Source: an uncultured Alphaproteobacteria bacterium (GTDB taxonomy: Bacteria; Pseudomonadota; Alphaproteobacteria; Rs-D84). Taken from it: a DNA stretch of 61,258 nucleotides. How positions within the stretch are numbered: the first letter of the stretch is position 1; each line of letters begins with the position of its first letter. A program made the position numbers and the translations under genes. The notes beneath the pieces were generated by a model. The model worked only from the letters and a program-made list of their open reading frames with translations. It did no database searches and was not told where the DNA came from. This document shows positions 2,673 through 41,617 of this stretch, piece by piece. Location: assembly GCA_937888635.1 (NCBI GenBank), contig CALARG010000021.1, positions 1 to 61,258 of the forward strand, given 5' to 3'.

Positions 2673-3461
2673 TTAAAATTCAATCCCAAAGTTCACACCA
2701 AATCCAAAACCATCAACCCATTCCCAATCGCCTTCTGCAACATGGGACATTTCCTTTGTAATATATGCACCAATAAATTTGGTTTCATCAATATTATAAT
2801 TTGCACCAAATGCAAAATCCCACGCCCCCAAATTCAATTTCCACATATCTCCATCAATCCACGCGGTATATTCCGCCGCACCAACCAGGTTCCAAGAATC
2901 ATTAATCACATACTGACCATCAACACCAAAACGCATCAGATGCAACCCACCATCACGTTCATCCCAGTTAAAAGATTCAGTCCCAATGTAATCAAACATC
3001 ACATGGCCCGCAATCGTAAATCCGGCACCAACATATCCACCACGAACGCCAATGGTCCAATTATACAACGTCGTGTCTTTATCCATAAAGGATGCATGAT
3101 CCCCCCATACTGGTGCAACAGAATAAGAGGCCAATAAATCCGCCTTCCACGCACCTTGATCTAACATACGATAATTAATCCCCAACGACAACGTATTCCA
3201 CGACATAGAATCAAACCAATCCGCCTGACCCGCAGACGTACCAACAACAACCGCCATATCTTCGGTAATACCATATCCAAACTCTTCATACAGCCCTACT
3301 TCATCAATTGCCTTGGTATGCGAACCAACAGATGTCACACTATAAAAATGCCCTGCCCCCGGACGCCACAATGGATTCCCATCAATAATATTTGCCGCAT
3401 GCGCGCCTGAAATTGCAAAAAAAGCCAACAAAGAAGTCAAAGTCAATTTTTTCATAATCAT
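2673..3461 (-). CDS. Outer-membrane beta-barrel protein, paralogue B
   Basis: Signal peptide MIMKKLTLTSLLAFFAISGAHA. Shares ANIIxGNPLxRPxxGxFY, EFGYGxxxD and C-terminal F with the upstream paralogue. Ends GVNFGIEF. Confidence 0.7.
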   Translation of the reverse strand: MIMKKLTLTSLLAFFAISGAHAANIIDGNPLWRPGAGHFYSVTSVGSHTKAIDEVGLYEEFGYGITEDMAVVVGTSAGQADWFDSMSWNTLSLGINYRMLDQGAWKADLLASYSVAPVWGDHASFMDKDTTLYNWTIGVRGGYVGAGFTIAGHVMFDYIGTESFNWDERDGGLHLMRFGVDGQYVINDSWNLVGAAEYTAWIDGDMWKLNLGAWDFAFGANYNIDETKFIGAYITKEMSHVAEGDWEWVDGFGFGVNFGIEF

Positions 3462-7749: not shown

Positions 7750-8760
7750 TCAATACAGATTTTCTGCAAACATATCATCCAATAACCCATTCAAATTATT
7801 ACGAAATTCTTCTCTGTCAGATGCCCACACAACCTGGCGCATTAAAAATTTATAAACATCATCCATTGTTAAATTTGGGATTCCCGCATCACACGCAACG
7901 CGTCGCCACGCAGTTCGCGGGTCAATTAAGTGCACACCGCCACGCCCTGGGAATACCCAGTGTCCATCCTGTGGCATATCCTGCAACAAAACAATCGCCC
8001 GATCTGACAATGGACGCCCATCCCACATATCATGATTAAAATCCAAATCTTCCCACGCCATAGAAAATATTTTTGAACGCGGTGCGAAACCATAAATCAG
8101 CATATAAAACGCCGAACGCAAAATCAAATCTGGCACCCTATCAATCGCCGCAACCAGGCGATAAAATCCCGCACGATTTAGTGGGCGTATACGGCGGTTT
8201 TGCTGGATTTTTTCTAGCCCAACCACCGGGTTCGTTTTCACATACCCCATTTCCATTGCATAGTTAAAAACACTTTGCATAAATTCTTGCATACGACCTG
8301 CGATTGCACGTCCAGAAATACTTGCAATAACATTTTTTACATCTTCTGATTTAATATCAGCAATCTTTTTTTCAAACAAAGATTCCAAATGCCGATTTAC
8401 CGCCCGCACCAATTTTGCATGCGAATCTTCACCACGCCGAACCTTGTTCTGCAAATACAAATCCAAGAATTGTTTAAACGTTATCTTCTTGCGACGAATC
8501 GGGGGCTTTTTCATCGCAGCATCCAAAATATCTGGCACTGCACTGCGCGCATCTTCTATATCCACCTGGGGATAATTTCCGATTAAAATCCGTTTATCCT
8601 TGCCATGTACGCGTTTTCGCACAAAGAAAGTTTTTATTCCACGACTGGTCACATACATACGCAAACGCGGTTCTGAAATATCCTGGACGACATCAAATCC
8701 CTTGGCCGGCGCCGGCAAGTTGTCCAAGATATACGGATTAAAATAGAATTGGTGCGCCAT
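7750..8760 (-). CDS. P4-type integrase-like protein with an apparently degenerate catalytic site
   Basis: Arm-binding (DUF4102-like) N-terminus (LPAPAKGFDVVQD...RLRMYVTSRGIKTFFVRKR...IGNYPQVDIEDAR), a core-binding region, and box I Arg (GFAPRSKIFSMAWEDLDF). The HxxR box reads TMDDVYKFL, and no C-terminal H...Y nucleophile segment is visible. Confidence 0.7.
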   Translation of the reverse strand: MAHQFYFNPYILDNLPAPAKGFDVVQDISEPRLRMYVTSRGIKTFFVRKRVHGKDKRILIGNYPQVDIEDARSAVPDILDAAMKKPPIRRKKITFKQFLDLYLQNKVRRGEDSHAKLVRAVNRHLESLFEKKIADIKSEDVKNVIASISGRAIAGRMQEFMQSVFNYAMEMGYVKTNPVVGLEKIQQNRRIRPLNRAGFYRLVAAIDRVPDLILRSAFYMLIYGFAPRSKIFSMAWEDLDFNHDMWDGRPLSDRAIVLLQDMPQDGHWVFPGRGGVHLIDPRTAWRRVACDAGIPNLTMDDVYKFLMRQVVWASDREEFRNNLNGLLDDMFAENLY

Positions 8761-12473: not shown

Positions 12474-12547
12474 GTCATCCCGCCGCACACCACGGAACCC
12501 AGGAATAGTATCATCTGTCATCCCGCGGCTTGACCACGGGCCCCAGG
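12474..12547. repeat. Two REP-like palindromic units (GTCATCCCGnGG...CCACGGGnCCCAGG)
   Basis: Units at 12474-12503 and 12517-12547. The second is the inverted partner of 12882-12912. Confidence 0.6.
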
Positions 12548-12554
12548 TTTATCC

Positions 12555-12869
12555 TTATAACAAATTATTCAAATCTTCATACAAATCACGCCATTGTGGG
12601 TTAAAATTTTCTATCAAATCCTTTTTCCAATTCCTTTGCCATTCTTTTAAACGCTTCTCATGACGTATTGCACGGTTTACATCCGTAAATCGCTCAAAGT
12701 AAACTAATTTATCAACATTATACCTGCTGGTAAATCCAGGCAACAAATGATTTTTATGTTCAAAAACACGTTGTGCTAAATTACTGGTAAACCCAACATA
12801 CAGCGTTCCATTCCTGGAACTGGCCATAATATAAACATAGTAATACTTTTCTGCTGTCCACATAAACAT
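12555..12869 (-). CDS. GIY-YIG nuclease-superfamily protein (small stand-alone URI domain)
   Basis: YYVYIMASSRNGTLYVGFTSNLAQRVFEHK...RHEKRLKEW. The N-terminal ORF extension runs into the repeat and is probably not translated. Confidence 0.85.
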   Translation of the reverse strand: MFMWTAEKYYYVYIMASSRNGTLYVGFTSNLAQRVFEHKNHLLPGFTSRYNVDKLVYFERFTDVNRAIRHEKRLKEWQRNWKKDLIENFNPQWRDLYEDLNNLL

Positions 12870-12881
12870 CAGAATACATAA

Positions 12882-12912
12882 CCTGGGTCCCGTGGTCAAG
12901 CCACGGGATGAC
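12882..12912. repeat. REP-like unit, inverted copy of 12517-12547
   Basis: Its reverse complement differs from 12517-12547 at 2 of 31 positions. Confidence 0.6.
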
Positions 12913-12954
12913 AATTTTCTGAATAAAAATTTCAAACAAAACAAAAAGAAAACT

Positions 12955-13002: not shown

Positions 13003-14250
13003 TTATTTAACAATAGATTCCCATTTCAAACCTTTAGTTGCATTATCATATACCAATGCACATGTTGCAGTACCATTTTCACAAGCTTCAGGCACATTCA
13101 TCTTTGCAACCGGTGTTAACGCTGCACGTGATACAGAAATTACACCATCCACTTCCGAAACAGCAGATACATATTCACCTGCGACAGCAGTATCTGCCTT
13201 ATCTAAAGCTTCAATTTTTGATTTTGCATCTGCTTTTGCATCAGCCAAAGCTTGGTCTGCTTTTGATTTTGCATCTGCCGCTGCAGTAGAAATCGCTTCA
13301 GACTTTGCCGTTGCAATTGCTGTATTCATACCTGTTGTATTAGTATAATTCTTCAACTGCTCAGTAGTAAACGACTTCGCATTTGATTCCGCTGTATTCG
13401 CCTTTGATGCCGCATCTGTCGCTGCCGCTGCTTGTGCATTTGCAATTGCGGTTGCAACATCTGTCGCGCCATCCGCTAATGTACCAATTTTATTATCAAT
13501 CTGCTTTGAAACTGAATTATCACCAGTATTTAATGCGTCAATCTGTCCCTGCAATTCCGTTTTTGCTGCACTAACCTGACTGGTCGTCTCTCCCTTTGCC
13601 GCTGCAACCGCTTCAGACTTTGCCGTTGCAATATCACCAGTCAAAGTTGTTTTTTGCGAGGCCAACTCTTCCTTGGTTGCAGAATTTGTTTCCAAGTTCG
13701 CAACATCTAATTTTAAACCAGCAACATCTTGCTTTGTCCCTGACAACGCATTGGTAATTCTGGTATCAACATCGTTCGTCATGACTTCCAGCTTATTTTT
13801 TACATACCCTGCTACAGCCGCGGTTGTCGGCGCAACTGTTGAAGTATCATTCTTGTTTTCTCCATTCTCATTAATTTGCCCAACCAAATCACCCGTGGTC
13901 ACAGAAACTTTACCATCTGTTTCTGACACTGTCTTAACATATTTACCATCTGCAACAGTAATCGTATCAACATCTAACCCTTGAACAGCCGCAGCAATTT
14001 GTGTTGAAATAGAACCATTTGCACCACCAATCGCAGCAACATCCGCTTGCAATTTCGTAATATCGCCCTGATTCTTTGTGTTATCAGTTTCCAAACTTGT
14101 AACACGTGTGTTCATTGCATTATTATACCCTGTTGCTGTTGCTTCTGCTGCCTGCTTCGCTTTATCAACATAGTCTGTTGATGCGATATCCGCGTTTGCT
14201 GCGGTAACCGCCATCATCGCAACCAAAGATGCTGTTAAGATTTTTTTCAT
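13003..14250 (-). CDS. Secreted fibre-like protein P1 (415 aa), tail-fibre-type modules
   Basis: Signal peptide MKKILTASLVAMMAVTAANA, then DIASTDYVD. Ala/Thr/Lys-rich rod. C-terminal cap ...CENGTATCALVYDNATKGLKWESIVK. Confidence 0.8.
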   Translation of the reverse strand: MKKILTASLVAMMAVTAANADIASTDYVDKAKQAAEATATGYNNAMNTRVTSLETDNTKNQGDITKLQADVAAIGGANGSISTQIAAAVQGLDVDTITVADGKYVKTVSETDGKVSVTTGDLVGQINENGENKNDTSTVAPTTAAVAGYVKNKLEVMTNDVDTRITNALSGTKQDVAGLKLDVANLETNSATKEELASQKTTLTGDIATAKSEAVAAAKGETTSQVSAAKTELQGQIDALNTGDNSVSKQIDNKIGTLADGATDVATAIANAQAAAATDAASKANTAESNAKSFTTEQLKNYTNTTGMNTAIATAKSEAISTAAADAKSKADQALADAKADAKSKIEALDKADTAVAGEYVSAVSEVDGVISVSRAALTPVAKMNVPEACENGTATCALVYDNATKGLKWESIVK

Positions 14251-14305
14251 GTTTTCCTTCCTTTCTTTTTGTTTGTTTTGTTTATTCTCTCATTTGATAT
14301 GATTT

Positions 14306-14335
14306 ATTTTATCATAAAATGCGAATCGCTGTCTA
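14306..14335 (-). promoter_or_regulatory. Putative promoter of P1 with a GANTC palindrome in the spacer
   Basis: Minus strand reads TAGACA-gCGATTCGcattttaTGa-TAAAAT (18-nt spacer, extended -10). GCGAaTCGC lies at 14321-14329. Confidence 0.45.
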
Positions 14336-14347
14336 TAATAAAATTTC

Positions 14348-16024
14348 CTATTCCGTACGACCGGCAATATCTTCCCATGCATATTCATAGGTCACCTTGC
14401 CATCGACAGTAATTTTCTTGGCCGTTAATACAAATGTACCTTCGGCGTTTTCTGATGTTGGCGCCTGAATTGCCCCCGCCAGCAACGAATTAACATCCGA
14501 CGCCAATTGATCTGCACCAACTGCATTTTTCGCAATTGTATTCGCCGTCACGGCACCAGCAGCAATATTTCCTTCTAGCACTGCCCCCGTTGCCAAATTT
14601 CCTGCCTCAACCGCACTTTCACCAATCTTACCCTTGACGATTGCGCCATCTGCAATTTTATCCTTTGTCACCGCATTATTGGCAATCTTACCTTCTGTTA
14701 CTGCATTATTGGCAATCTTACCTTCTGTTACGGCCGCATCTGCCAATTGTGCAGTTCCAATTCCATTGTCCACAATTGAAACAACACCATTTGCAATAAC
14801 AATAACGCCTTCTTGCCCGGTCAGACTAACCTGTTTTGCATCCAATGCCGCCTGCAAACCGTCAACTTTTTCAATTGACAATGTTGGAATATCCGATTCT
14901 GCCAACTCTGCCCGTGACACAGTAATAACACCGTTTTCCTGGGATACCGCTGTTACGAACTGACCAGTTGTTGTCCCATCCGCAACATCCAATCCACCCA
15001 ATGCCTCTTGGATAGAATTTTCAACAGATCCAACCGTCGCGGCAGTATCATTCAACAAAGCAATTGCCGCCTTGTTATCATTAATCTGCGCAGTCAAGTT
15101 CTTAATAGAACCTTCTGCATTTTCCCCACCTTCTAAAATCGCGATAGTATCTGCATTTGCCTTGACCTGCGCATCCAATTTAATCGTTGCCGCTTTTAGT
15201 CCCGTTTGTTCATTCAAATAATTTGTACCCGAATATGTCACACCGGTCACATCCGCTGCATTTGCCTTTAGATCAATTTCACCCTGCAATTGCGTATCTG
15301 CTGCCTCGCGCGCAGATTTTTCTGCTGCGATTGCATCCGCATTTGTTTTAACCGCACCTGCTGCCAATTCAGAAACCTTGGAATCTGCATAGTTTTGCGC
15401 TGTTTTTAAAACACCAGTCTCGGCATTATTAATCGCCGCAATCGCAGATTCATTTGCCGCGACCTTAGCATCAGTTGCATCCAGCGCAGTTTTATCCGCC
15501 TTTGTCCCCAAGGCAGATTCAACTGTCACCCCATCACCCAGACCACCAATAGTTTCTTTGATATCCGCAACATTCGTCTTCAATGTAGAAACATCACCCT
15601 GCAAGGTTGCAACACCACCTGTCAAAATTCCAACCGCATTCTCGGCAATTTTAACCGTTGCCGCATACGATGGATAGTGTTCATTTTCCGTCCCTTCTGC
15701 AGGCGCAACAACAGCACCATTTGCGTCTGTCTTAACCAAATTAGCCTTTACCTGTTGGTCTGCAACCGCTGCATTAACCGCCGCATAAATATCAGCCGCC
15801 GTCACCAGGTTTGTCCCCTGTTCAGATACAGCACCTGTTTCAACAGACACAATATTATTTTCAATCTTTACCGGCCCAGTTGCGGTCATTTTTGTTTGCA
15901 CATCCGCCAATTCTGTTTTCAAAACATCATTTAAATATTCAGTTGAAACAACGGCTGCATCTGCAACACCCGCAGACACCAGCCCCAACAGTACAGAAAA
16001 AATACCCGCAGTTAATTTTCTCAT
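14348..16024 (-). CDS. Secreted fibre-like protein P2 (558 aa)
   Basis: Signal peptide MRKLTAGIFSVLLGLVSAGVADA, then AVVSTEYLNDV. Eight decapeptide repeats (xxAVTxGKIA). Cap ...GTFVLTAKKITVDGKVTYEYAWEDI. Confidence 0.8.
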   Translation of the reverse strand: MRKLTAGIFSVLLGLVSAGVADAAVVSTEYLNDVLKTELADVQTKMTATGPVKIENNIVSVETGAVSEQGTNLVTAADIYAAVNAAVADQQVKANLVKTDANGAVVAPAEGTENEHYPSYAATVKIAENAVGILTGGVATLQGDVSTLKTNVADIKETIGGLGDGVTVESALGTKADKTALDATDAKVAANESAIAAINNAETGVLKTAQNYADSKVSELAAGAVKTNADAIAAEKSAREAADTQLQGEIDLKANAADVTGVTYSGTNYLNEQTGLKAATIKLDAQVKANADTIAILEGGENAEGSIKNLTAQINDNKAAIALLNDTAATVGSVENSIQEALGGLDVADGTTTGQFVTAVSQENGVITVSRAELAESDIPTLSIEKVDGLQAALDAKQVSLTGQEGVIVIANGVVSIVDNGIGTAQLADAAVTEGKIANNAVTEGKIANNAVTKDKIADGAIVKGKIGESAVEAGNLATGAVLEGNIAAGAVTANTIAKNAVGADQLASDVNSLLAGAIQAPTSENAEGTFVLTAKKITVDGKVTYEYAWEDIAGRTE

Positions 16025-16054
16025 AATATTCCCTTCCTTTCTTTCGTATGGTAC

Positions 16055-16084
16055 ATTATATCATATTTGCCCGAATCGTGTAAA
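16055..16084 (-). promoter_or_regulatory. Putative promoter of P2 with a GANTC motif in the spacer
   Basis: Minus strand reads TTTACA-CGATTCGggcaaataTGa-TATAAT (18-nt spacer). Confidence 0.5.
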
Positions 16085-16111
16085 GACCAAAAAAAACACT
16101 TCTATATTTTT

Positions 16112-16144
16112 ATAAAAAAAACAGGGGCATTTTTTGCCCCTGTG
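16112..16144 (-). terminator. Rho-independent terminator after P3
   Basis: ACAGGGGCA-TTTTT-TGCCCCTGT with T8 on the minus strand. Confidence 0.7.
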
Positions 16145-16161
16145 TATTAGTCAAAAAATAA

Positions 16162-17094
16162 TTATAACGATAAAGCCAATTCCATCCAATATGGATCACC
16201 ATTCTGATCAACTGACAAAACACATTTTGCATGTGCACAATTTGTACCTGGTTTTGGAACCGCATAACCTTCAACTGTTTTTTTTGCAGTATTAGCGACC
16301 GACCCTTCTTCGGTATCAGCAGCATTCAATGTCGCAATTGCACCCTGATTGGTAACCGCAATTTCATTTGTCTTTGCCAAACCTTTTTCTGTATCGTTCA
16401 CAGCGTTTGTCAAATTCGTTAAATCAGTTGCCGATGCCTTGGTTGCGATATCCGCTTTATTCTGCGCAATATCTGCTTTGACCTGTGTATCATCATAGGT
16501 TGCAGCACTCTGCGCTTCTGTAATCATTTGAACAACTGTTTTATCCGCTGGGACATCACCAATTGTTGTTTTATCAGCCTTTCCACCCAACGCAGTTTCT
16601 AAGTCCTGAACCTGTGACTGCTGAATAACAGCATTTGCAATAGAATGTGCAACCGAACCACTTTCTGTCGCCGCGCCGTTCAATTTGGTAATCGCATTTT
16701 CATTTGCAGTAATTTTTAAGTCCTGCGCCTCATCAACTTCTGCCTGGGCTGTTTTAACTGCATTTATCTGCTGTTTAACAGAACCATCTTTATTTTCGTC
16801 ACCTGTCAATGTTGCAATAGAATTTTGAATATTTTGCATGTCTTCAGACCCAACCACACCTTCGGTCTTGGTATCCAATGCCTTAATCGCAGTCGCCACA
16901 TCAGAATAGGTAGCAGACCCAACTGTAAATCCACCCTGTGGAATTGTACCAACCTTGGTATCAACAACACCAACCTTTGCATCAACATAGCCCGTTGATG
17001 CAACGCTGATTGGGTCCGCTGCGTTTGCCGCACCTGCAACACTCATCAGGATTGCCGCCATAACACCACCAAACATAATATTTTTAATTTTCAT
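16162..17094 (-). CDS. Secreted fibre-like protein P3 (310 aa)
   Basis: Start trimmed to MKIKNIMFGGVMAAILMSVAGAANA (SD GAAAGGAA upstream), then VASTGYVDAKV. Cap ...TNCAHAKCVLSVDQNGDPYWMELALSL. Confidence 0.8.
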   Translation of the reverse strand: MKIKNIMFGGVMAAILMSVAGAANAADPISVASTGYVDAKVGVVDTKVGTIPQGGFTVGSATYSDVATAIKALDTKTEGVVGSEDMQNIQNSIATLTGDENKDGSVKQQINAVKTAQAEVDEAQDLKITANENAITKLNGAATESGSVAHSIANAVIQQSQVQDLETALGGKADKTTIGDVPADKTVVQMITEAQSAATYDDTQVKADIAQNKADIATKASATDLTNLTNAVNDTEKGLAKTNEIAVTNQGAIATLNAADTEEGSVANTAKKTVEGYAVPKPGTNCAHAKCVLSVDQNGDPYWMELALSL

Positions 17095-17170
17095 TATTAT
17101 TTCCTTTCTTTTCTTTCGTTTTTTATTTTTAAATGCCACCCCAAAATATTATGGGGTGACACTATTTATA

Positions 17171-18211
17171 TTAATTTGCAGCTGGCTTAATCGCATTGTC
17201 ACCATTCAATGTGATTTCATTACCGTCTTTGTCCAAAATCTTAATTGGCGCATATGATACAGCACCCGTTGCATCAAAATTCACCAGATATGTGCCCGCC
17301 GTAGTCACAACAGAAACCTTTTTAGCAATTTCTGCTGCATTATCTGCAATCCCCTGGGTATTTGTAGCAATCGCAGCAACTTTATCTGAATCAACACCTG
17401 AATTAACCGCCTTCATCTGTGTCTCATCCAACTTTGCCTGATAATTTTCGCTCAAATTCAAATTATCAATCGCTGTCTGAACATCATCTGCCGTCTGATA
17501 ACCTTTACCCTGCAATTCGGTTTCATCAACATATTTGCCATTTGCCAAGGCATCAGCAATAGACTTTGCAACCGAACCTTCTGTTTGCGCATCTGCATTC
17601 AATTTTGCGATACCCTCCGTATTACCCTTAACATCCTGCATCAGGGTTGCAATACCTTGGCTGCCGTTTCCACCACTCAAAGTATTAATCGCCGCGGTAT
17701 TCGCCTGAATATCAGATTCAGCTTCGGTCATACGTGTTGTCAAACCCGAAATATCTTCCTTGTTGGTTGTAATTTGAGCAACCGCCTCAGAATCAATCCC
17801 AGAATTAATTGCCGCCTGTTGTTCAGTCGTCAATGTATCCTGCTTACCTGCCAAGGCTTCCTGAACAGTAATATCTTCGCCCTGTTCATTCTGCAATGTC
17901 CCAATTTTCTGATCCAAGGCATCCGACACAGACACTACATTGCCTTCTGCGTCAACACCAATCTTCTGCTCCAACGCCTCTACAGATTGTTTTGTTGCCA
18001 ACGATGACAGGTCAACATTCGCAGAAATTGTTGTTGTGCCATCTGCCTGTTCTGCAATATCAATCCCCTGCCCTTCGGTCAATTTTGCCTGCAATTTTGC
18101 ATCAGCATAGTCTTTTGAAATCAAAGACACATCTGCCGCAACCGCTGCCCCACATACGGTCGCAAATACTGCCGCCGCAAAACCAGAAAACATAATATTT
18201 TTTACTTTCAT
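17171..18211 (-). CDS. Secreted fibre-like protein P4 (346 aa)
   Basis: Signal peptide MKVKNIMFSGFAAAVFATVCGAAVA, then LISKDYADAKL. Cap ...AGTYLVNFDATGAVSYAPIKIL. Confidence 0.8.
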   Translation of the reverse strand: MKVKNIMFSGFAAAVFATVCGAAVAADVSLISKDYADAKLQAKLTEGQGIDIAEQADGTTTISANVDLSSLATKQSVEALEQKIGVDAEGNVVSVSDALDQKIGTLQNEQGEDITVQEALAGKQDTLTTEQQAAINSGIDSEAVAQITTNKEDISGLTTRMTEAESDIQANTAAINTLSGGNGSQGIATLMQDVKGNTEGIAKLNADAQTEGSVAKSIADALANGKYVDETELQGKGYQTADDVQTAIDNLNLSENYQAKLDETQMKAVNSGVDSDKVAAIATNTQGIADNAAEIAKKVSVVTTAGTYLVNFDATGAVSYAPIKILDKDGNEITLNGDNAIKPAAN

Positions 18212-18248
18212 TTTTTCCTTCCTTTCCTTTTTTAATCTTTTGAATTTT

Positions 18249-19436
18249 TTACTTCAAAATCTCTACTGACAACCATGTCACATTACCTTCTGCATCAACA
18301 GACATCAGCAATGTTTCACCCGCCGCAGGCGTCCGGCCAGCAATCTTGTCCATTGTGACTGCCTTGGCATCAATATCTGCTGTTGCAACCATATCCTTGA
18401 ATGCCAACGCTTTTAAATCTGCAGTATTTGCCTTCTTGGCCAATTCCGCATTAACAGTCTCCGTTTTTGCATAAGACCCTAATTCTGACTTGGTCGCCAA
18501 ATCAGCAGTTGCCGTTGTAATTGCACCTTGAACCTGTTGTGCTGTTTGATAGCCTGCGGCCTCTAATGTATCAACGCGACCTTCAACCGCATCAACCGTT
18601 TCAATTGTTGCGTATGTCTTGGCAACATCTTCAGACTTTGCATAACTGCTCAGATCAATATTAGAAGAATCAATAACCGCCTGGTCAATCTTGGCATTCA
18701 AATCAGTAACCGCCGTTTCCAACGCAGACTTATCCGCCTTAGTTGCAATTGCCGCCTTGTTATCTGCAACATCCTTTAACAAACCAGAATCCGCCGAACC
18801 AACAACATTTGTTATCTGTTGTGTCACCTGCTGTTCTGTCACATATGTTTCTGATGCTGTTTTTTGCGTCACATATGTATTCTGGGCATCAGTTTTGGTC
18901 AGATAATTATTTGATATATTTTGTTCCAAATTCTGAATCGTTTCTGCCGATACCTTCTTTGCCAATTCTTCATCAACATATGATTTTTCTGCCAAGCCTT
19001 CCACCGATGGGATTTCTGGCTTGTCCGACAAACTGTTATATGAACCCGTTGTCGCCACTTCAGACAACCCCGAAATATTTTCCACCGCCAACGGATTTTC
19101 AGCCGTAATCACATCCTGCTTGCCCGCCATTTCCGAGTGCAACTCATTAATCGCCGGAATTGCCAGTTTTGCCTCTGTGTCTAACTGAATCCAGTTGTCA
19201 TCAGCATCTCTGCTATTCAACATATCACGCAACACAACCTGATTCTCAAAAAGCTGATTATCGTTTGTGTTCATGGTTCTGCTCATAGGCGTAGTTGTGC
19301 TATCAACATAGTCTATAACCTCAAAAAACAAATCATCTACATACTCTTCACTTGCGTAATTTTCCGCTGAATATGCCACATTAGACAATGCAACAAAAAT
19401 ACAAAACGGCAGCAAAAAAGATGTTTTCCTTGTCAT
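18249..19436 (-). CDS. Secreted fibre-like protein P5 (395 aa)
   Basis: Signal peptide MTRKTSFLLPFCIFVALSNVAYS, then YASEEYVDD. Contains VATTGSYNSLSDKPEIPS. Cap ...AGETLLMSVDAEGNVTWLSVEILK. Confidence 0.8.
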   Translation of the reverse strand: MTRKTSFLLPFCIFVALSNVAYSAENYASEEYVDDLFFEVIDYVDSTTTPMSRTMNTNDNQLFENQVVLRDMLNSRDADDNWIQLDTEAKLAIPAINELHSEMAGKQDVITAENPLAVENISGLSEVATTGSYNSLSDKPEIPSVEGLAEKSYVDEELAKKVSAETIQNLEQNISNNYLTKTDAQNTYVTQKTASETYVTEQQVTQQITNVVGSADSGLLKDVADNKAAIATKADKSALETAVTDLNAKIDQAVIDSSNIDLSSYAKSEDVAKTYATIETVDAVEGRVDTLEAAGYQTAQQVQGAITTATADLATKSELGSYAKTETVNAELAKKANTADLKALAFKDMVATADIDAKAVTMDKIAGRTPAAGETLLMSVDAEGNVTWLSVEILK

Positions 19437-19498
19437 TTTTCTTCTCTTATCAATATTTATATTAATTCCCAGCTGTACTATTAATTTAAATCACAACC

Positions 19499-21826
19499 CT
19501 ATATTTCAGGAACAGTACCACCAGAACTGCCACCAACAATGTCACTGGTCAATTTCCATGAATACGAACACTTCTTACTGGTACATGTTGCTGACAACAA
19601 ATATTTTCCAGTCCCTGGATTTTCTGGCGTCGCCATATAGCCTGCCAAATCATCCTGACTCGCAAAACCTTCTGTCGCTGTTGTAATTGCATTTTGAACA
19701 TCGGTTGATGTCTGATAACCAGCATTTTTCAAGTTGGTTATTTCGGTCGTGTTACCATTAACCAATGCCTGCAGGGCATCCAACGCAGATGTCGTTGCAT
19801 ATCCTGACAAATCAACACTACCACCCGATGCAGCACCTGCAATCTTCTCGTCAACTTCTGCCTTGGTATAAACATTTGATGTTTTTGCATATTCTGCCAA
19901 TGAATCAGAAACCGCCTTCAATGCAGTTGCCGTCGCATAGTCACCCGACGCCTGTTTGTTGGCAATTTGCGCTTCTAAATTCGTACGCAGGGTCTCCAAT
20001 TCTTCACTTGTCACCAAATCATTCAACGCGCTTGCATCTGCCTTGGTTGCCAATTCTGCTTTGGTCGCCAGATTTGCCGTTGATGGAATTTCCGACTTGG
20101 TCGCATAATCATCCAACGCCGCACTGGTAATATACCCTGCATCATTTGTAAACACAGAAACATCAGTTGGCACAGTTGGAATCAAGGCCTTGACCCCATT
20201 AATCGCCGCAGTTAATTCCGCATCAGACGCATAGGTATCACCTAAATTATTAATTGCTGTCTGCAATGCAGTCACAGTCGCAACATCTGCCTTGCCTGAC
20301 TGCAAATCAGAAATCGCGGCATTAATTCCTGCCAGATCTGCTTCTTCTAAATAATCGCCCGCATCTTGCTTTGCTGCGATTTTATCTTCTAATGCCTGCA
20401 ATTCTGCACTGGTCGCCAATCCCGCAATTGATGGGATTTCCGGTTTATCCGACAAACTGTTATATGAACCCGTTGTTGCGACTGCCGCCAAATCACCTGT
20501 CTTGGCATAATCGGCCAACTCGGCCTTGGTTGCCAAATCTGCCGTTGCTGTCGTAATTGCACCCTGAACATCTGTTGATGTCTGATAACCAGCACTCTTT
20601 ATCGCGTTAATCTCAGACGCATTCCCACTCACTAACAGCTGCAGGGCCTCCAAGTCAGATGTTTTTGCATATCCGGACAAATCAATCTGACCTCCCGAAA
20701 CCGCATCTGCAATCTTCTGATCAACTTCTGCCTTGGTATAAGAATCACCCTTTAAATCTGCCAACGAATCAGAAACCGCCTTCAACGCAGTCGCCGTCGC
20801 ATAGTCACCCGACGCCTGTTTGTTGGCAATTTGCGCTTCTAAATTCGTACGCAGGGTCGCCAATTCTTCACTTGTCACCAAATCATTCAACGCGCTCGCA
20901 TCTGCCTTGGTTTCCAATTCTGCCTTGGTCGCTAAATTCGCTGTTGATGGAATATCTGTCAACTTGGCATAACCATCCAAACTTGGGATTTGAATTGCCA
21001 AAATCGCATTCTGTAATCTGGTTTCAACTTCACTCAATTCACCCTTTGTTGAATAAGTATTCCCCAAATTATTAATCGCTGTCTGCAATGCTGTGACCGT
21101 GCTTGCATCTGCCTTGTCAGATTCCAGTGCATTAACCGCATTCTGCAATTCCGCCAAATCAGATTCTTCTAAATAATCACCTTTATCCTGCTTTTCTGCG
21201 ATTGCGGCTTCCAATGTTGTCTTTAATGTATTTAACGCACTTGCATTTGCCTTCAGCAACAATTTCGCATCCACATCATCAACCGTTGCATACTGACTCA
21301 AATCAATCGCCTTGACCGCAGCATCCACCACACCAATCGCATCTCGCAAATCCTGTTCAGTCGCATTCAATTCGCTTTTCTTCGCATAATCCGCACTAAT
21401 CGTCGCAACCGACGCCTGCAAACTTTCAATCGCAGCCTTATCCGCACCACCTGTTTGCAAAGTCTCTACTGTATTTTTTAATTCCTGCAATTGCGCCGCT
21501 GTCGCATAATCACCCGCCGCATGCTTGGCTGAAATTTCTGCCTGCAACGCCCTTTCCAAGGCCGCCAAATCACTATGCGTTGCAAAATTCTTAAAATCAG
21601 GCATATCATGCTTTAACAAGAAGTTTGAAACATCCAGTGTTGACTTAACAACATTATCGGAAATTTCAATCCCTTCACCCGCGGTCAGGACATTTTGTTT
21701 CTGCGCCAAAGCATCATCAACATAAGTTTTACTGGCCAGATTAACAGTCGCCGCACTTGCCACACCGGCAACCGACGCCAAGATCGTTGCCATAACACCA
21801 GAAAATACAATATTATTAATTCTCAT
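19499..21826 (-). CDS. Secreted fibre-like protein P6 (775 aa), internally duplicated
   Basis: Signal peptide MRINNIVFSGVMATILASVAGVASA, then LASKTYVDDAL. Contains TTGSYNSLSDKPEIPS and VFTNDAGYITS. ~290-aa internal duplication. Cap ...GKYLLSATCTSKKCSYSWKL. Confidence 0.85.
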   Translation of the reverse strand: MRINNIVFSGVMATILASVAGVASAATVNLASKTYVDDALAQKQNVLTAGEGIEISDNVVKSTLDVSNFLLKHDMPDFKNFATHSDLAALERALQAEISAKHAAGDYATAAQLQELKNTVETLQTGGADKAAIESLQASVATISADYAKKSELNATEQDLRDAIGVVDAAVKAIDLSQYATVDDVDAKLLLKANASALNTLKTTLEAAIAEKQDKGDYLEESDLAELQNAVNALESDKADASTVTALQTAINNLGNTYSTKGELSEVETRLQNAILAIQIPSLDGYAKLTDIPSTANLATKAELETKADASALNDLVTSEELATLRTNLEAQIANKQASGDYATATALKAVSDSLADLKGDSYTKAEVDQKIADAVSGGQIDLSGYAKTSDLEALQLLVSGNASEINAIKSAGYQTSTDVQGAITTATADLATKAELADYAKTGDLAAVATTGSYNSLSDKPEIPSIAGLATSAELQALEDKIAAKQDAGDYLEEADLAGINAAISDLQSGKADVATVTALQTAINNLGDTYASDAELTAAINGVKALIPTVPTDVSVFTNDAGYITSAALDDYATKSEIPSTANLATKAELATKADASALNDLVTSEELETLRTNLEAQIANKQASGDYATATALKAVSDSLAEYAKTSNVYTKAEVDEKIAGAASGGSVDLSGYATTSALDALQALVNGNTTEITNLKNAGYQTSTDVQNAITTATEGFASQDDLAGYMATPENPGTGKYLLSATCTSKKCSYSWKLTSDIVGGSSGGTVPEI

Positions 21827-21850
21827 CTCTTCCTTCCTTTTAGCAACCTG

Positions 21851-22756
21851 TTAGTCAACCAGAACATCAACCCATTCCATTTTACCTTCTGCATTTTTCT
21901 GCAACATCAAGAAACCATTCTCGCCCACAGCTTCAGCCGCACCACCAAAATTCAGTTTGTCAGCACCGACAGAATCATCTGGAATTTCATAATCTAACAA
22001 AGCCTCGTTAACTGTTTCTTCAACGACCAAATTAACCGTCTCTTCTACAATAGGCACAACATCATCTTTCTTGGCATAATCACCCAACAAAGTATCCGTT
22101 TCTTCCTTGGTATAGTATTTATCCTGAACCCCATCCAAGGCCGCCTGCAACGCATCAATTTCTGCCATACCCACAAAGTCAGTTGCCAAATCATAAACCA
22201 TAACATCTTCGCCCTGCACAACCGTCAGAACACCATCTGCATATTCAACCGTTGTTGAACCGCCTGTTATCTGTGATAAATCTGCCGCCAACGCATCAAC
22301 ATCCAACTTAATCGCATCTAACTGTTCGGAAACACTTTCACCATTTTCACTAAAACCAACAAAGCTTTCCAGTTCTTCTACACGTTCGCGCAAATCGTTA
22401 CCTGAACTGCCCGCACCTGGCTTATTCGCCCCAGAAATTGAAGACCCACCACTAATCGCACTGGACCCAGACAAGTATTTACCAATTGACAAACGCGGCG
22501 TTGACGCTGCACGCGTTGAGCCCGAGCGGGTCGCCCCCGTATTTGCACCTGCAACATTATTCACGCGCATTGACCCCGCACGCACAGAATTAATTGCACC
22601 ACCATCCGACTTGGCCGCCGCCGCGCCAGATGCACTGGTATATGTTCCTGCCCCGCCCAGCGCACGCACCGAAGACGCACCAAAAGAAGGCATCGCCACA
22701 GATGCACACAACACACAAACGATTGACAGCGTTGATATTTTCAGTTCATTTCTCAT
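21851..22756 (-). CDS. Secreted fibre-like protein P7 (301 aa) with a Gly/Ser/Ala/Arg-rich N-terminal region
   Basis: Signal peptide MRNELKISTLSIVCVLCASVAMPSFG, low-complexity region (SVRAGSMRV..TRSGSTRAAS), then a coiled segment. Cap ...GENGFLMLQKNAEGKMEWVDVLVD. Confidence 0.75.
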   Translation of the reverse strand: MRNELKISTLSIVCVLCASVAMPSFGASSVRALGGAGTYTSASGAAAAKSDGGAINSVRAGSMRVNNVAGANTGATRSGSTRAASTPRLSIGKYLSGSSAISGGSSISGANKPGAGSSGNDLRERVEELESFVGFSENGESVSEQLDAIKLDVDALAADLSQITGGSTTVEYADGVLTVVQGEDVMVYDLATDFVGMAEIDALQAALDGVQDKYYTKEETDTLLGDYAKKDDVVPIVEETVNLVVEETVNEALLDYEIPDDSVGADKLNFGGAAEAVGENGFLMLQKNAEGKMEWVDVLVD

Positions 22757-22781
22757 ATTGCATTCTCTCTACTTGTTTTCA

Positions 22782-22811
22782 ATTTTATCACAATCAGCGA
22801 ATCGGGGTCAA
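22782..22811 (-). promoter_or_regulatory. Putative promoter of P7 (and probably P6-P4) with a GANTC motif in the spacer
   Basis: Minus strand reads TTGACC-cCGATTCGctgattgTGa-TAAAAT (18-nt spacer, extended -10). Confidence 0.5.
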
Positions 22812-22840
22812 CCCTCTTTTTTGACACTTTTTCTATTTTT

Positions 22841-23521
22841 TTAGAAATCGTATCTTACCCCAACAGAAAATGAATTATTTATAATCATATCCACATCTGT
22901 TTTCAGCCAATATCCACCGGAATACGCAACACCTTCTGCCTTGACATCTGGCCCAAACAAGAACGACAATCTATAACGAAAATCCAAACTTACACTGTCT
23001 GTTAATTTATGCGAATAACCTGCCATCAAATCAAACTTTGGCGAAACAGTGCGTTTATCCGAATCAAATGTATACCAGCTTAAATCAACCTTTGGAATTG
23101 CGATTCCCAAACCACCGCCAACATAGGCATTATTTGCGAAATCATACATCATATTAACCGACAAATATGGTATAGTTAATTTAAAATCTGCACCATAACC
23201 ACTGTCTGTAAACTGCCCGATTAAGCCACCTTCTACTTCACCACGCCAATTTGCATTTGCTACATGCCCAACCGCCAAAGAACCACCAAAAACAGGCTCA
23301 AACGAAAAACTCTCAGATTTGCCATCTATCTCCAAATCATCAGACGAGTATTTATTCTTCCAACTAAGCAGTGACATTTCGCCACGAACAACACCATACC
23401 ACGCACCATTCAACCAATGCGATGGCGCATTATCCACCGGCCTTACCACAGAATACTTTGGCGCAGAAAACGCCGGTACAGTTAACATTGCCAATACTGC
23501 AAAAGATACAATTTTTTTCAT
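22841..23521 (-). CDS. Small outer-membrane beta-barrel protein (Omp25/OMP_b-brl-like)
   Basis: Start trimmed to MKKIVSFAVLAMLTVPAFSA. Alternating beta-strand pattern and terminal ...FSVGVRYDF. First gene of the fibre locus. Confidence 0.75.
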   Translation of the reverse strand: MKKIVSFAVLAMLTVPAFSAPKYSVVRPVDNAPSHWLNGAWYGVVRGEMSLLSWKNKYSSDDLEIDGKSESFSFEPVFGGSLAVGHVANANWRGEVEGGLIGQFTDSGYGADFKLTIPYLSVNMMYDFANNAYVGGGLGIAIPKVDLSWYTFDSDKRTVSPKFDLMAGYSHKLTDSVSLDFRYRLSFLFGPDVKAEGVAYSGGYWLKTDVDMIINNSFSVGVRYDF

Positions 23522-26988: not shown

Positions 26989-27747
26989 TTATCGCCTGTT
27001 ATCCTGATACTGCCGTTCTTTCTGTTGCGCCTCTTCATACCCTTTACGAATTCCTGCCTGCAAAACATCTAAGCATTTCTGAAATCTCTTTTTCTTACCC
27101 AAATCTTTATATTGAGAACATTTATATTTATCGCCCGCATCATCCACTTCATCAACTTCTGTTTTTCCAGAACTAGACAACATAACCGAAAAATCCTTTG
27201 CCAACTGCTTGCGCAATTCGGTCGTCAAATTTGCACCATTATTTGACGAATTATAAATTGTCGTCAAATTTCCATTCAAACATTCAAAAACCTTTAATGT
27301 TGATATTTCGCGATTACAATCATAAACACCCGCCATATGAATATTAGGATTACCTGATTCAAAACGCTCGCTGCCCCCTGATGAAGAAGACGAACCGCCA
27401 CTTGACCCAGATGATGCGCCCTTGGCCTCTAACGAAGTGGTTAAAATCGCCTTTTCCAGTTGCGTTTTCAATCTGCGCAACATAGATTCCATTTGTTCAT
27501 ATTGCTTATACATCTGTTGTGTAATAACCGTTGTCTTCATCGCAATAACATCACGCATCAGTCCCTTGTCCGCGCCAGATGGATTTTTCGTATTTCCGAT
27601 ATTATATGCATGCGTTGAACACAGTGCCAATTCCGCCACAATCATATCATTATCGTCGTTATCACAACCATTTTCCGCGGCAACCACCGGCACAGTCAGC
27701 AATGCCAGAACCGAAAAACCAACCAAGATATTTTTTACTTTTTTCAT
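26989..27747 (-). CDS. Secreted Cys-containing protein (252 aa), unknown family
   Basis: Signal peptide MKKVKNILVGFSVLALLTVPVVAA, a Ser/Gly linker and 7 Cys. Motif LCSTHAYNIGNT is shared with 42716-43630. Confidence 0.6.
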   Translation of the reverse strand: MKKVKNILVGFSVLALLTVPVVAAENGCDNDDNDMIVAELALCSTHAYNIGNTKNPSGADKGLMRDVIAMKTTVITQQMYKQYEQMESMLRRLKTQLEKAILTTSLEAKGASSGSSGGSSSSSGGSERFESGNPNIHMAGVYDCNREISTLKVFECLNGNLTTIYNSSNNGANLTTELRKQLAKDFSVMLSSSGKTEVDEVDDAGDKYKCSQYKDLGKKKRFQKCLDVLQAGIRKGYEEAQQKERQYQDNRR

Positions 27748-27767: not shown

Positions 27768-29918
27768 TTAAAACCCAATCTTCCTTATACACTCACCATT
27801 AGAGTTCATAGTACCATCATGCCAAATTGACTGACAATCGCACGCCCCATTAGTCCATTTACCACCACTGTTCTCACAGGCAGATCTTCGCGCCCCCCCT
27901 TCAACAGCTGATGTTAATACGTCCTTCTTTATACACCGACCCGCAACTTGATAAGAATCATCCCCGCACATACAATATGCATCATAATTATTCGATACCC
28001 ATGTTCCGCCACTATTCTTACAATCATTCACCGTCTGTGCAGTCGCAGCAACCGCTGCCCCCTCTGCGGTAATCGTAGTTTTCTCTTTACGTTTTATCAC
28101 CTTTCCATCTGTCGCATCATACCCACAGCGATCCCCATAAACACGACAACGTTTTTCTGTCTCGGACCATTCAACACGACACCCAGATTCAATCACTAAA
28201 TACTGGGCGGCGCCATCCCGTACCAGCGCATTGTCTTTCTTGTATCCTTCACACCCCTCTTTGGTACTGATTGAACCAACATATTCTGACAGACCCGTTT
28301 CCACCCATCCCACAGAATAACTAAGCGCACCACCGGTCACAAACTCGCGCTCCAGTGCCTTGGTCGTGGTACAAATCGTCTTGGGCAGTTTTTTTGTCTT
28401 AACCGCATTCATCAGACGCTGATAAGAATCTTCGTTAACTGCGCAATACTTTAATCTGTCAATATCCGTATTTCCACCCTGAACATAGCGATTACTAATC
28501 GCAAATTCTGGTGCATCCTGGGCAATAATGCGTTCCAGGGTATCTAAATCCAATGTTGCACCATTACGACTGCTGCGACGACCAAATATCGCAATAGATT
28601 CCAACGCCGATGTTGCACATCCAACACGAACCAGTTTATCACCATCATCGGCCTCGTTAATCCATTCACGCAAAACCACATCCCGATCTGTACCTGTGCC
28701 ACCAATCAATTCTGTCAATGTACAACGCGAATCATCCTGGGGCGGTACGACCATCCCGGGCGTACATTCCATTCCACCTTTGACCGCACCAACCGCAATT
28801 TTATCACCGTCTTTCTTTACATATATCGCACCCTTGACGGAACGACCATTTTTACATGTGTCCTCGGTATAATGACCTTCTTGGTGTTTCCCGCCTGATG
28901 TATCTGTGGTACACATAAACTTGCCCCACTGATTACAGGCGCCACTTAACATCATAATAACATCCGAAACATCCGCACCAACCGCCAACGCCATTTCCAG
29001 ACCTTCGTAGGCCTCGTCTACAATCGCATCATACGGGTCAAAGAATCCCATTGCCTTTTGCTTGAAAATTTTCACGCGTTTTGGACCCGAACAGTTATTT
29101 CCACGCGTATCACAGCCTGCATATGTAAAGATATCTTGCATTGTTGCATTCAGTGTTTTTAACGCAACCTCGGCATTTTCAATTTTAGTTAAAATCTGAC
29201 CTGAAATTTGATTGCGCATCAAAACATCCGCAGAAACACCCTTCTCTATCGCCTCTGCCTGGGCATCACTAACATTTGACAAACTCTGCGACGCTGCCGC
29301 CTGGGCCTGTGCCTGGGCGGTTGCCGCGGCCGCCGCCTGGGCCTGCGCCTGGGCTGCTAATGCTTTTTGTTCATCCAGTGCCGCCTGCATTTGCTGCATC
29401 TGTTGTGCGTTTTGCTGTTGCATTTCATATTGCATCTGCTGCATTTGTTGCTGCATCTGCTGCATCTGGGCACTGTTCTGTGCTGCTGCCGCCTGGGCCG
29501 CTGCATTTTGCGCCGCCAACTGCTGTTGCTGTACCTTGGCATTTGCATCGGCCACAATTTGTGCAGATATATAATCCACTAAATCATTGCCATGCTTTTT
29601 ACATGTATCATTACTGTTAACGCACCCCTCAACAATCGTTCGCGCAATATCCATCGTTGTACATCCCGCACACTTTGGCTGTGCACAACGCAAAATCAGC
29701 GAATTACAATTACCAAAATCCGCCTTTGGCTTTTGCCCAACCGCACCAGTTGCCTGGGTACGACTGTTCATTATTTGATTCCAATTATTATTATTTGTTG
29801 CACCACTGTCCCCATTCCATGCGGTCAAATTACTGCCCGCAGTTGTTGCAACATTCGCACCCGCGACGCCCGGCATCGCGCACAAAACCAACAATAAAAA
29901 AGACGTCAGCAATTTCAT
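27768..29918 (-). CDS. Large secreted Cys-rich protein (716 aa) with a Gln/Ala-rich low-complexity segment
   Basis: Signal peptide MKLLTSFLLLVLCAMPGVAGA, a Q/A tract (QQMQQQMQQMQYEMQQQNAQQMQQMQ..AQAQAQAAAA), and C-terminal Cys-rich modules (CKNSGGTW..CMCGDDSYQVAGRC; CENSGGKW..CDC..GEC). Confidence 0.7.
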   Translation of the reverse strand: MKLLTSFLLLVLCAMPGVAGANVATTAGSNLTAWNGDSGATNNNNWNQIMNSRTQATGAVGQKPKADFGNCNSLILRCAQPKCAGCTTMDIARTIVEGCVNSNDTCKKHGNDLVDYISAQIVADANAKVQQQQLAAQNAAAQAAAAQNSAQMQQMQQQMQQMQYEMQQQNAQQMQQMQAALDEQKALAAQAQAQAAAAATAQAQAQAAASQSLSNVSDAQAEAIEKGVSADVLMRNQISGQILTKIENAEVALKTLNATMQDIFTYAGCDTRGNNCSGPKRVKIFKQKAMGFFDPYDAIVDEAYEGLEMALAVGADVSDVIMMLSGACNQWGKFMCTTDTSGGKHQEGHYTEDTCKNGRSVKGAIYVKKDGDKIAVGAVKGGMECTPGMVVPPQDDSRCTLTELIGGTGTDRDVVLREWINEADDGDKLVRVGCATSALESIAIFGRRSSRNGATLDLDTLERIIAQDAPEFAISNRYVQGGNTDIDRLKYCAVNEDSYQRLMNAVKTKKLPKTICTTTKALEREFVTGGALSYSVGWVETGLSEYVGSISTKEGCEGYKKDNALVRDGAAQYLVIESGCRVEWSETEKRCRVYGDRCGYDATDGKVIKRKEKTTITAEGAAVAATAQTVNDCKNSGGTWVSNNYDAYCMCGDDSYQVAGRCIKKDVLTSAVEGGARRSACENSGGKWTNGACDCQSIWHDGTMNSNGECIRKIGF

Positions 29919-34872: not shown

Positions 34873-35006
34873 CGTTATTTTCCATATGGTTTGTTGTTAA
34901 CAAATATATAGTCGCCCACAACAAAAATTCAACCCCAAAATAAGATTTAGGCAGAAATTCTTTGGGCTTGCACAAAATTCAAAAATGTTTTAATAATAAT
35001 ATCACT

Positions 35007-37627: not shown

Positions 37628-37661
37628 CAAAAAAAAACCGGCAATTGCCGGTTTTTTTTAT
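37628..37661. terminator. Bidirectional terminator (perfect 16-bp palindrome)
   Basis: ACCGGCAATTGCCGGT flanked by A9 and T8. Confidence 0.75.
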
Positions 37662-41258: not shown

Positions 41259-41617
41259 GCCGTTTTCTCCTTTTTCCTTCCTTTCAAAAGAGTTTCCTGC
41301 CCGAACAAGGTTGTAAAAACCACCCACACAAAACACCATTTTTCAATTGAATCACGGTATTTTATATTGCCCTACTTTAAACTCTCTCGCGCCATTAATG
41401 TTTTTTGGATTAATTTTATTTTAGACATTTAAAATAAAACCAATCCTGTTTTTTTGATTACCTTTTTCTCGTTTTGGATACGACAGATAAGTTAAAATAT
41501 TATTTTCCATTTACAAGCAAATCTTGCCCCAAAATTTCACTTTTATTTTTTGACAACGATTCGTTTTTTTGCCTATTTTCTGCCCTTTGTATATACACTG
41601 TATAGACAATTTTTTTA

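Follow-up and report, generated by a model that had tools for sequence, protein, structure and literature searches.

Bacteriophage T4 fibritin (gp wac) is a segmented coiled coil with short loops and a C-terminal foldon, assembled in the cytoplasm as a virion part and devoid of a signal peptide. A second type of rod is found in the trimeric autotransporters (TAAs) of diderm bacteria, which are Sec-dependent, coiled-coil-rich and repetitive. The mosaic adhesive trimer (MAT) fibres of Bdellovibrio bacteriovorus are mosaic, trimeric, signal-peptide-bearing proteins found on the surface of the predator (PMC10769870). Their signal peptide is directly followed by a conserved β-rich N-terminal domain of ~130 amino acids, and their stalks, of β-helix or prism type, carry diverse globular C-terminal tips (S74 protease/chaperone, TNF-like, lectin, β-sandwich) of which six structures were reported (PMC10769870). 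Here we analyse a locus found in a 61,258-nucleotide stretch of DNA (contig CALARG010000021.1 of assembly GCA_937888635.1, positions 1 to 61,258; hereafter the window) from an uncultured alphaproteobacterium of the Candidatus Enterousia group, lineage Rs-D84. The predicted products of the locus would share features with each of these systems. We favour, with moderate confidence, the reading that it codes for a repertoire of Sec-exported, rod-shaped surface fibres together with a small outer-membrane barrel, at a chromosomal position conserved in Enterousia/Rs-D84.

Enterousia is a member of the order Rs-D84 and its genomes are mostly smaller than 1 Mb (PMC12306168). They are widespread gut inhabitants of humans, ruminants, horses, birds and termites, have neither flagella nor respiration nor standard transporters, and are predicted to be obligate symbionts or parasites dependent on other cells (PMC12306168). 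Rs-D84 metagenome-assembled genomes (MAGs) were also obtained from termite guts and from rumen fluid fractionated by size and density for small cells (such fractionation is described in PMC8992543). The words "adhesin" and "surface" are absent from the main genomic description of Enterousia (PMC12306168). With a length of ~10.5 kb, the locus described here would occupy more than 1% of a genome below 1 Mb.

The locus spans positions 13003-23521 and is composed of eight consecutive genes on the minus strand, one barrel gene followed by seven genes of fibre-type proteins in the order P7 to P1. All eight open reading frames (ORFs) listed by the original prediction, which was made from the letters of the DNA alone, are present:

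22841-23521, minus strand: small outer-membrane β-barrel of OmpA/Opa/Omp25 type, 226 amino acids, first gene of the locus (Pfam OMP_b-brl)
21851-22756, minus strand: P7, 301 amino acids, the fibre always adjoining the barrel; signal peptide, N-terminal region predicted to be disordered, helices, small sheet and C-terminal hairpin
19499-21826, minus strand: P6, 775 amino acids, the longest fibre; C-terminal end CTSKKC...W
18249-19436, minus strand: P5, fibre of 395 amino acids; AVTMDKIA module and LLMSVDAEGNVTWLSVEILK end
17171-18211, minus strand: P4, fibre of 346 amino acids; Tyr replaces the hairpin Trp
16162-17094, minus strand: P3, fibre of 310 amino acids; signal peptide followed by ISVASTGYVD, mosaic helical stalk and conserved end
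14348-16024, minus strand: P2, fibre of 558 amino acids; tandem AVTEGKIANN repeats, C-terminal part similar to tail fibres
13003-14250, minus strand: P1, fibre of 415 amino acids; signal peptide and DIAST.YV invariant across species, ending CENGTATCALVYDNATKGLKWESIVK

The intergenic gaps measure 24-137 bp. In a mechanically generated ORF list two of the genes start further upstream, P3 at a GTG (17139) and the barrel gene at an ATG (23704). The shorter starts (17094 and 23521, respectively) agree with the orthologues and are preceded by GGA-rich ribosome-binding sites. The eight ORFs are true genes rather than products of chance, because their layout is kept in dozens of genomes and because their ratio of nonsynonymous to synonymous substitution rates (dN/dS) is below 1 (see below).

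The two ends of the fibre proteins are their most conserved parts, among paralogues as well as among species. Signal peptides were called heuristically by the presence of K/R in residues 1-8, a hydrophobic core, a small-x-small cleavage site and no later transmembrane segment. All seven fibres pass, with a mean Kyte-Doolittle value of 2.25-2.87 over 10 residues, and so do their orthologues in four other genomes, as expected from the Sec signal peptides attributed to them originally. Each position of the locus has a signal peptide of its own, which is unusually conserved and whose hydrophobic region is rather long (~13-17 residues). The signal peptide of P1 with the residues that follow it, MKKILTASLVAMMAVTAANA-DIAST.YV, is identical in genomes whose remaining P1 is 31-49% identical (partial alignments), while the signal peptides of P4 and P3 share 56% identity. 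Within the first 4-15 residues past the predicted cleavage site P1-P6 feature the motif [AS]-[ST]-x-x-Y-[VLA]-[DN] (S-x-x-Y-V-D; hereafter the N motif). P7 lacks it and has instead a Gly/Ser/Ala-rich region with the sequences ASSVRxLGGxGTY and (P)RLSIGKYL, which are invariant in the alignment columns. At the other end the seven proteins have a pattern of ~20 residues in common, G-x-[YFL]-h-L-x-h-x3-5-G-x3-8-W-x-x-h (Tyr for Trp in P4), that reads as a two-strand hairpin followed by acidic or polar residues; the conserved end of P3 is GYAVPKPGxNCxxxKCVLSVDxxGxPYWMELAL. The alignment of P3 orthologues (A1) and the one built for P7 (A2) both have conserved ends and a mosaic middle. By this measure it is the stalk of the fibres that varies, and not a tip.

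Structural information came from AlphaFold2 (AF2) monomer models of P3 and P7. In both, the C-terminal β-hairpin is the best-predicted part, with a predicted local distance difference test score (pLDDT) of 70-81; in P7 its strands (residues 282-287/293-298) score 72-77, and residues 27-121, predicted to be disordered, score below 50. The P3 model has helices from residue 35 onwards, its stalk being made of helical segments broken by loops. A hydrophobic periodicity of 3.5 residues is enriched in the stalks, where 12-29% of the sequence windows lie above the 95th percentile of shuffles. The stalks are thus predicted to be mainly segmented helices that end in a tiny conserved C-terminal hairpin.

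The fibres are rich in Ala (12-19%) and Thr (6-13%), in agreement with the composition first proposed. In line with their description as nearly Cys-free, mature P2, P4, P5 and P7 have no Cys at all, and in P1, P3 and P6 the Cys of the mature chains are restricted to a C-terminal pair located ahead of the hairpin. The modules quoted in the original prediction were searched by regular expression across the paralogues, and each one was found in at least two of them or repeated within one: LNxxAxTEGSVA in P3 (twice) and P4, LTxGxGIxI in P4 and P6, GYQTxxxVQxAI in P4, P5 and P6 (twice there), and AVTxxKIA in P2 (three times) and P5. The modules YNSLSDKPEIPS and GYQT are common to P5 and P6. Several modules recur among paralogues also at the nucleotide level. 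P2 has a tandem 30-bp repeat coding for the AVTEGKIANN units (14652-14731) and P6 has an internal duplication of ~870 bp (19637-20116 versus 20507-20980).

An exhaustive profile search over 1.84 billion representative proteins identified 526 relatives at E <= 1e-3, 207 of them at E <= 1e-10. We examined 138 relatives: a signal-like N-terminus is present in 132, the N motif in 119, the Cys pair in 112 and the Trp hairpin in 108. The Cys pair of P1, P3, P6 and these 112 relatives fits an oxidising, extracytoplasmic location. All named matches of the fibre family belong to gut MAGs of Candidatus Enterousia, Alphaproteobacteria or Pseudomonadota, a distribution that suits the lineage-specific repertoire proposed at the outset; judged on these matches, the family is lineage-specific. 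The seven fibres have no match in Pfam and NCBIfam, including the flagellin, S-layer, TAA, RTX, autotransporter and S74 families, and searches of the Protein Data Bank (PDB) by sequence and by profile (P1, P2, P5, P6, A1, A2) returned chance matches only. Relationship to a characterised family, one of the outcomes that had been put forward as refuting the prediction, was therefore not found in these databases. Inspection of the sequences by eye for a type IV prepilin leader, a lipobox, or sortase, PEP-CTERM and type IX secretion C-terminal signals gave none that fits. The family is coherent and of modest size, and it and its locus are undescribed.

A scan of one genome per species yielded 31 species-level loci, all of them in animal and human gut MAGs named "Candidatus Enterousia sp." or "Alphaproteobacteria bacterium". 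Every sufficiently long contig of this set has the same order: the divergent FtsX-FtsE genes, the barrel gene, a P7-like gene, one to eight further fibre genes, and then DedA-RbfA-(acetyltransferase)-LepA. A distant relative has a rearranged, smaller version with the barrel, a P7-like gene and two further members of the family. The number of fibre genes per complete locus ranges from two to nine, the P7-like gene included, and both number and lengths differ between species; the P7-like protein alone varies from 289 to 841 residues. The flanks are housekeeping genes in all syntenic loci and the locus never lies within a prophage. There are no capsid, terminase, tape-measure or lysis genes near it, as originally stated, and the other window genes are of housekeeping type (dnaA, gyrB, dnaN, dnaJ, tolB, fabF, serS, typA, asmA). 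A scan of 2.9 million viral contigs with patterns specific for the N- and C-terminal ends of the family retrieved no relatives. The prophage embedding that had been named as a reason to abandon the prediction is thus not observed.

The link of the fibres with phages lies in their stalks. Residues 312-545 of P2, with the AVTxxKIA repeats, match PHROG 892 (tail fiber, 1.1e-9) and, in tblastn searches of cultured phages, tail fiber, host specificity protein J and minor tail genes at 30-51% identity. P3 aligns over residues 91-212, at 43% identity, with P0055, a protein of 424 residues encoded in a prophage tail module, and the P3 modules common with phages are YDDTQVKADI and LNGxAxTxGSVA. P6 matches two PHROGs of unknown function (30808 at 1.8e-12 and 7927 at 2.8e-8) and has no match among cultured phages, while P1, P4, P5 and P7 gave no significant phage match. 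The assertion that the modules are typical of phage tail fibres consequently applies to parts of P2 and P3, is limited to families of unknown function in P6, and does not extend to the other four fibres. The phage-type relatives have neither a signal peptide nor the Trp hairpin, so the Enterousia lineage draws stalk modules from a phage pool and supplies ends of its own. Both ends are specific to this lineage, with only the stalk modules being common with phages. The prophage that encodes P0055 (L005/L006, positions 1-21275) has in its tail module a tape-measure gene, two reverse transcriptases of diversity-generating retroelements (DGRs), a lysin gene and a bAvd-like gene. Related fibre modules may thus be diversified by DGRs in phages and by cassette replacement in Enterousia.

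Such replacement is seen in comparison with locus L001 of a close strain, whose backbone has ~87% nucleotide identity to the window (LepA and FtsE are 99% and 98% identical at the amino acid level). The dN/dS values relative to L001 are 0.006-0.063 for the flanking genes, 0.07 for the barrel gene, 0.09 for P7, 0.15 for P5 and P6, 0.23 for P4 and 0.37 for P2. Since all are below 1 the genes are functional, and the gradient shows relaxed or diversifying selection on the fibres, which are by far the fastest-evolving part of the neighbourhood. In three of the genes the 5' end matches L001 at the nucleotide level but a stretch further on has no match there at all: the body in P1 (13003-14160), the middle in P3 (16345-16967) and a part of P2 (14960-15248). 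A segment within P3 of L001 has its match in one P4 module of the window. These patterns amount to cassette replacement between conserved gene ends. An A-rich 19-nt inverted repeat with 89% complementarity (12933-12951/14262-14280) brackets P1 almost exactly. We considered an invertible element, or phase variation, at P1 and rejected it for want of support: this is the only inverted repeat that flanks a fibre gene, it is of low complexity, and the orientation of P1 is constant in all loci. The repeat is probably due to chance.

The barrel protein matches Pfam OMP_b-brl (PF13505) with an E-value of 1.9e-7 and 31.8 bits, above the curated cut-off of 28.7. It has a signal peptide and ends in ...VGVRYDF with an aromatic last residue, in keeping with the Omp25-like barrel announced originally. 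PF13505 is carried by 111 relatives of the barrel, sometimes together with OmpA_membrane or Opacity, and names given to relatives are "porin family protein" and "opacity protein-like surface antigen". The barrel gene is the first gene of the locus after FtsE wherever that end is present. In several related genomes (L003 3010-3411, L007 6524-6928, L040 8638-9042) a protein of ~134 amino acids, similar to the peptidoglycan-binding OmpA_C, is encoded between FtsE and the barrel. This insertion is absent from the window. Adjacency of barrel and P7 is universal in the loci examined.

Several sequences resembling transcription signals are found within the locus. All are consensus matches only:

22782-22811: promoter-like site upstream of P7, similar to the site upstream of P2
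16121-16143, minus strand: terminator-like hairpin plus T-run after P3 (9-bp stem with 6 GC pairs, T8)
16055-16084, minus strand: promoter-like site upstream of P2 (TTTACA-18-TATAAT, 11/12 positions, TG extension)
14306-14335: promoter-like site upstream of P1, similar to the site upstream of P2
12963-12984, minus strand: terminator-like hairpin, closing the locus after P1

The hairpins after P3 and P1, together with the promoter-like sites before P7, P2 and P1, suggest that the locus is probably made of several transcription units rather than one operon. The reading as a single operon is opposed by the hairpin after P3 and by the three promoter-like sites, and was not retained.

The surface-fibre reading implies the following sequence of events. 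The proteins would be exported by Sec and their signal peptide cut. The C-terminal hairpin, stabilised by a disulfide in some of them, would then nucleate an oligomer in the manner of a foldon, most likely a trimer, as in the case of the phage modules that the stalks contain. The conserved N-terminal end would hold the rod on the envelope, and the stalks would stick out from the cell surface, where they would serve for attachment or form a fibrillar coat. Stalk diversity would arise by exchange of cassettes among paralogues, strains and phages, with the conserved 5' and 3' ends being kept. A more elaborate version, which we regard as speculative and rather improbable in its entirety, is that of a hitherto unknown fibre-display system of ultra-small diderms operating without type V secretion, chaperone-usher or type IV pilus machineries. 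The N-terminal peptides of P1-P6 would dock on a base formed by the barrel and the P7 motif region, the rods would attach Enterousia to partner cells, and their specificity would be re-tooled by stalk swaps with gut phages, the conserved 5' and 3' gene ends serving as recombination anchors.

Several observations weigh against surface fibres of this kind. Barrels of the 8-stranded OmpA/Opa class do not have the size needed for translocation of a fibre. The barrel of the locus is accordingly too small for a translocator and there is no evident route across the outer membrane. It may simply come from the gene of a neighbouring major outer-membrane protein (OMP). A promoter-like site is present in the gap that separates this gene and P7. 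The conserved and long signal peptides leave room for an uncleaved membrane anchor in place of a cut one. The AF2 models are of low confidence overall (mean pLDDT of 56.7 for P3 and 50.4 for P7), and Foldseek comparison of both with PDB and BFVD gave no usable match (best E = 0.88), which put an end to identification based on structure. Homology of the hairpin to the foldon was also discarded: a hidden Markov model (HMM) of 34 hairpins scored the T4 foldon at -0.4 bits, while shuffled sequences reached up to 5.2. Finally, neither Pfam nor the P3 and P7 models revealed a lectin-like domain or a globular tip such as adhesins usually have.

The missing tip is also a point in favour of the alternative that has the best standing after the one we prefer. 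The rods could form an antigenically variable protective coat, substituting in a minimal cell for a capsule, O-antigen or S-layer, instead of acting as specific adhesins, and variation of the stalk would then serve escape from phages, protist grazers or host antibodies. A coat would account for a stalk that varies while both ends are conserved, as well as for the raised dN/dS and the differences in copy number and length between species. All this is compatible with an adhesive role too, nothing in the data telling the two apart, and the predicted partner-dependent lifestyle needs attachment structures in bacteria for which pili and flagella are not reported (PMC12306168). We judge the coat a genuine but clearly less probable option.

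A location of the fibres inside the envelope is a weaker option still, which we find unlikely. Lpp and the periplasmic CrvA are the examples of coiled-coil spacers and filaments with which such fibres would be compared, perhaps tethered to peptidoglycan by their N-terminus. The Sec signal, found with no recognisable outer-membrane secretion partner in the window, and the coiled-coil-like content suit this possibility. So do the predicted mature starts of P3 and P4 (Ala-Asp) and of P1 (Asp), which recall the alanyl-aspartyl-linked OMPs of Brucella and Agrobacterium. Alphaproteobacterial OMPs are joined to peptidoglycan via an N-terminal Ala-Asp motif (PMC10787603). The motif is nevertheless not general in the family: it is absent from P5, P6 and P7, and many relatives start with AAISVAS or AVQIAS (all cleavage sites are predicted), which speaks against linkage by Ala-Asp. 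Rods of 300-775 residues would in addition be far longer than the periplasm is wide. Cassette swaps, modules in common with the receptor-binding proteins of phages, and numbers and lengths that differ between close species are not what one expects of periplasmic structural proteins. The fast evolution of cassette type and the modules that occur also in receptor-binding proteins of phages speak for outward exposure rather than for a structural role in the periplasm. A further idea is that the rods are domesticated fibres whose parent particle is phage-derived (tailocin, gene transfer agent or prophage) and has its other genes elsewhere. It is hinted at by the stalk modules common with phages (in tail fibre, host specificity J and minor tail proteins), but is largely refuted and its likelihood very slight, given that signal-type N-termini occur on all seven proteins and are missing from virion fibres assembled in the cytoplasm and from the phage-type relatives, that the locus has housekeeping neighbours in all genomes examined and no relatives were retrieved from viral contigs, and that genomes below 1 Mb have limited space for the genes of such a particle (PMC12306168).

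Other features of the window lie close to the locus or recall its proteins. Directly downstream of P1 there is an ORF with a GIY-YIG domain (12555-12944, minus strand), most of which is bracketed by a GC-rich inverted repeat of 34 nt with 94% complementarity (arms 12516-12549 and 12880-12913, the right arm being inside the 5' end of the ORF). L001 has this ORF (Pfam GIY-YIG), L002 and L003 lack it, and it resembles a small insertion of mobile or homing type. A protein of 336 amino acids (7750-8760, minus strand) has Arm-DNA-bind_3 and Phage_int_M/SAM-like domains; the tyrosine-recombinase catalytic domain was not detected. Its gene is found at the same place, after LepA and before acpP-fabF, wherever gene calls reach (L001-L004, L041), and is therefore fixed in the chromosome rather than the integrase gene of a prophage. 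No link between it and the fibre locus was found. Four further exported orphans, all on the minus strand (37658-39904, 27768-29918, 26989-27747, 42716-43630), have a signal peptide and no Pfam match. Two of them, of 748 and 716 amino acids, are Cys-rich, with low-complexity N-terminal regions and EGF-like Cys-rich C-terminal ends. The four make up a second class of lineage-specific exported proteins whose mutual similarity is limited to a weak match between the 716- and 748-residue members. Their similarity to P7 is not significant, and a sorting motif common to the N-termini of P7 and these orphans was dismissed on the same BLAST result. The tandem ORFs 1812-2630 and 2673-3461 (minus strand), with signal-like N-termini and C-termini ...FGADF and ...FGIEF, look like further outer-membrane barrels although they have no Pfam match at 1e-5. 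The window also carries dnaA (39972-41339, minus strand), gyrB (34962-36986, plus strand) and dnaN (52974-54092, minus strand), the call of the latter being inferred solely from the N- and C-terminal sequence of its protein. The GC skew is negative in all 2-kb bins and the cumulative skew falls monotonically past dnaA with no turning point. Either the replication origin is not beside dnaA here, or the skew arises mainly from the strong minus-strand coding bias.

The locus is the most concrete candidate so far for a cell-contact or surface-coat apparatus of Rs-D84/Enterousia, because it takes up more than 1% of a genome of this size, keeps one and the same position in all genomes examined and evolves by far the fastest in its neighbourhood. 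A minimal, partner-dependent organism that keeps a universal and hypervariable locus adds to its interest. Among the known systems, TAAs are excluded because none of the seven proteins has the YadA-type C-terminal anchor (4 strands per chain) or a TAA head, neck or stalk domain (no Pfam match at E <= 1), as had been foreseen for the anchor; the barrel here is a separate, small protein of OmpA/Opa type and not a fused 12-stranded trimeric anchor. Phage tail fibres have only stalk parts in common with the Enterousia proteins, which differ by their signal peptides, lineage-specific ends and lack of a tail-module context. The overall layout seems closer to T4 fibritin than to β-helical tail fibres, with helical segments, loops and a C-terminal Trp hairpin of ~20-27 residues in models of low confidence, but no sequence relationship was detected (no match to Pfam Fibritin_C) and signal peptides are found in the Enterousia fibres only.

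The resemblance to the fibres of predatory bacteria, put forward in the original prediction, survives as a concept only. Like the MAT proteins, the Enterousia fibres are multi-copy, signal-peptide-bearing, phage-fibre-like mosaic rods with a conserved end, which would retain them on the cell, and another part diversified. The element that follows the signal peptide measures ~10 residues, in contrast to the β-rich domain of ~130 residues, a difference that by the description of MAT sets them apart; in the models P3 has helices from residue 35 and P7 its disordered Gly/Ser/Ala-rich region in place of that domain. The Enterousia proteins combine predicted helical stalks with a small conserved hairpin, and it is the stalk that varies instead of a globular tip. 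They have no Pfam match to Peptidase_S74 or another tip domain and, whereas the six MAT tip structures are expected in PDB, they gave no match there. They are encoded in tandem at one fixed locus, while MAT genes were not described as a syntenic locus headed by a barrel. The Enterousia fibres appear, on this comparison, analogous to MAT fibres and not members of that family. Next to the Bdellovibrio MAT they would be a second case, of independent origin, of bacterial exported fibres built from the pool of phage fibre modules, in a different layout of helical, variable stalks and a minimal hairpin cap. They also sharpen the question, common to both systems, of how fibres exported by Sec reach the outer membrane and stay on it without a known secretion system. 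As far as the sequences tell, bacterial exported fibres made of phage-fibre modules are known in kind, and what is new here is an undescribed family and its locus.

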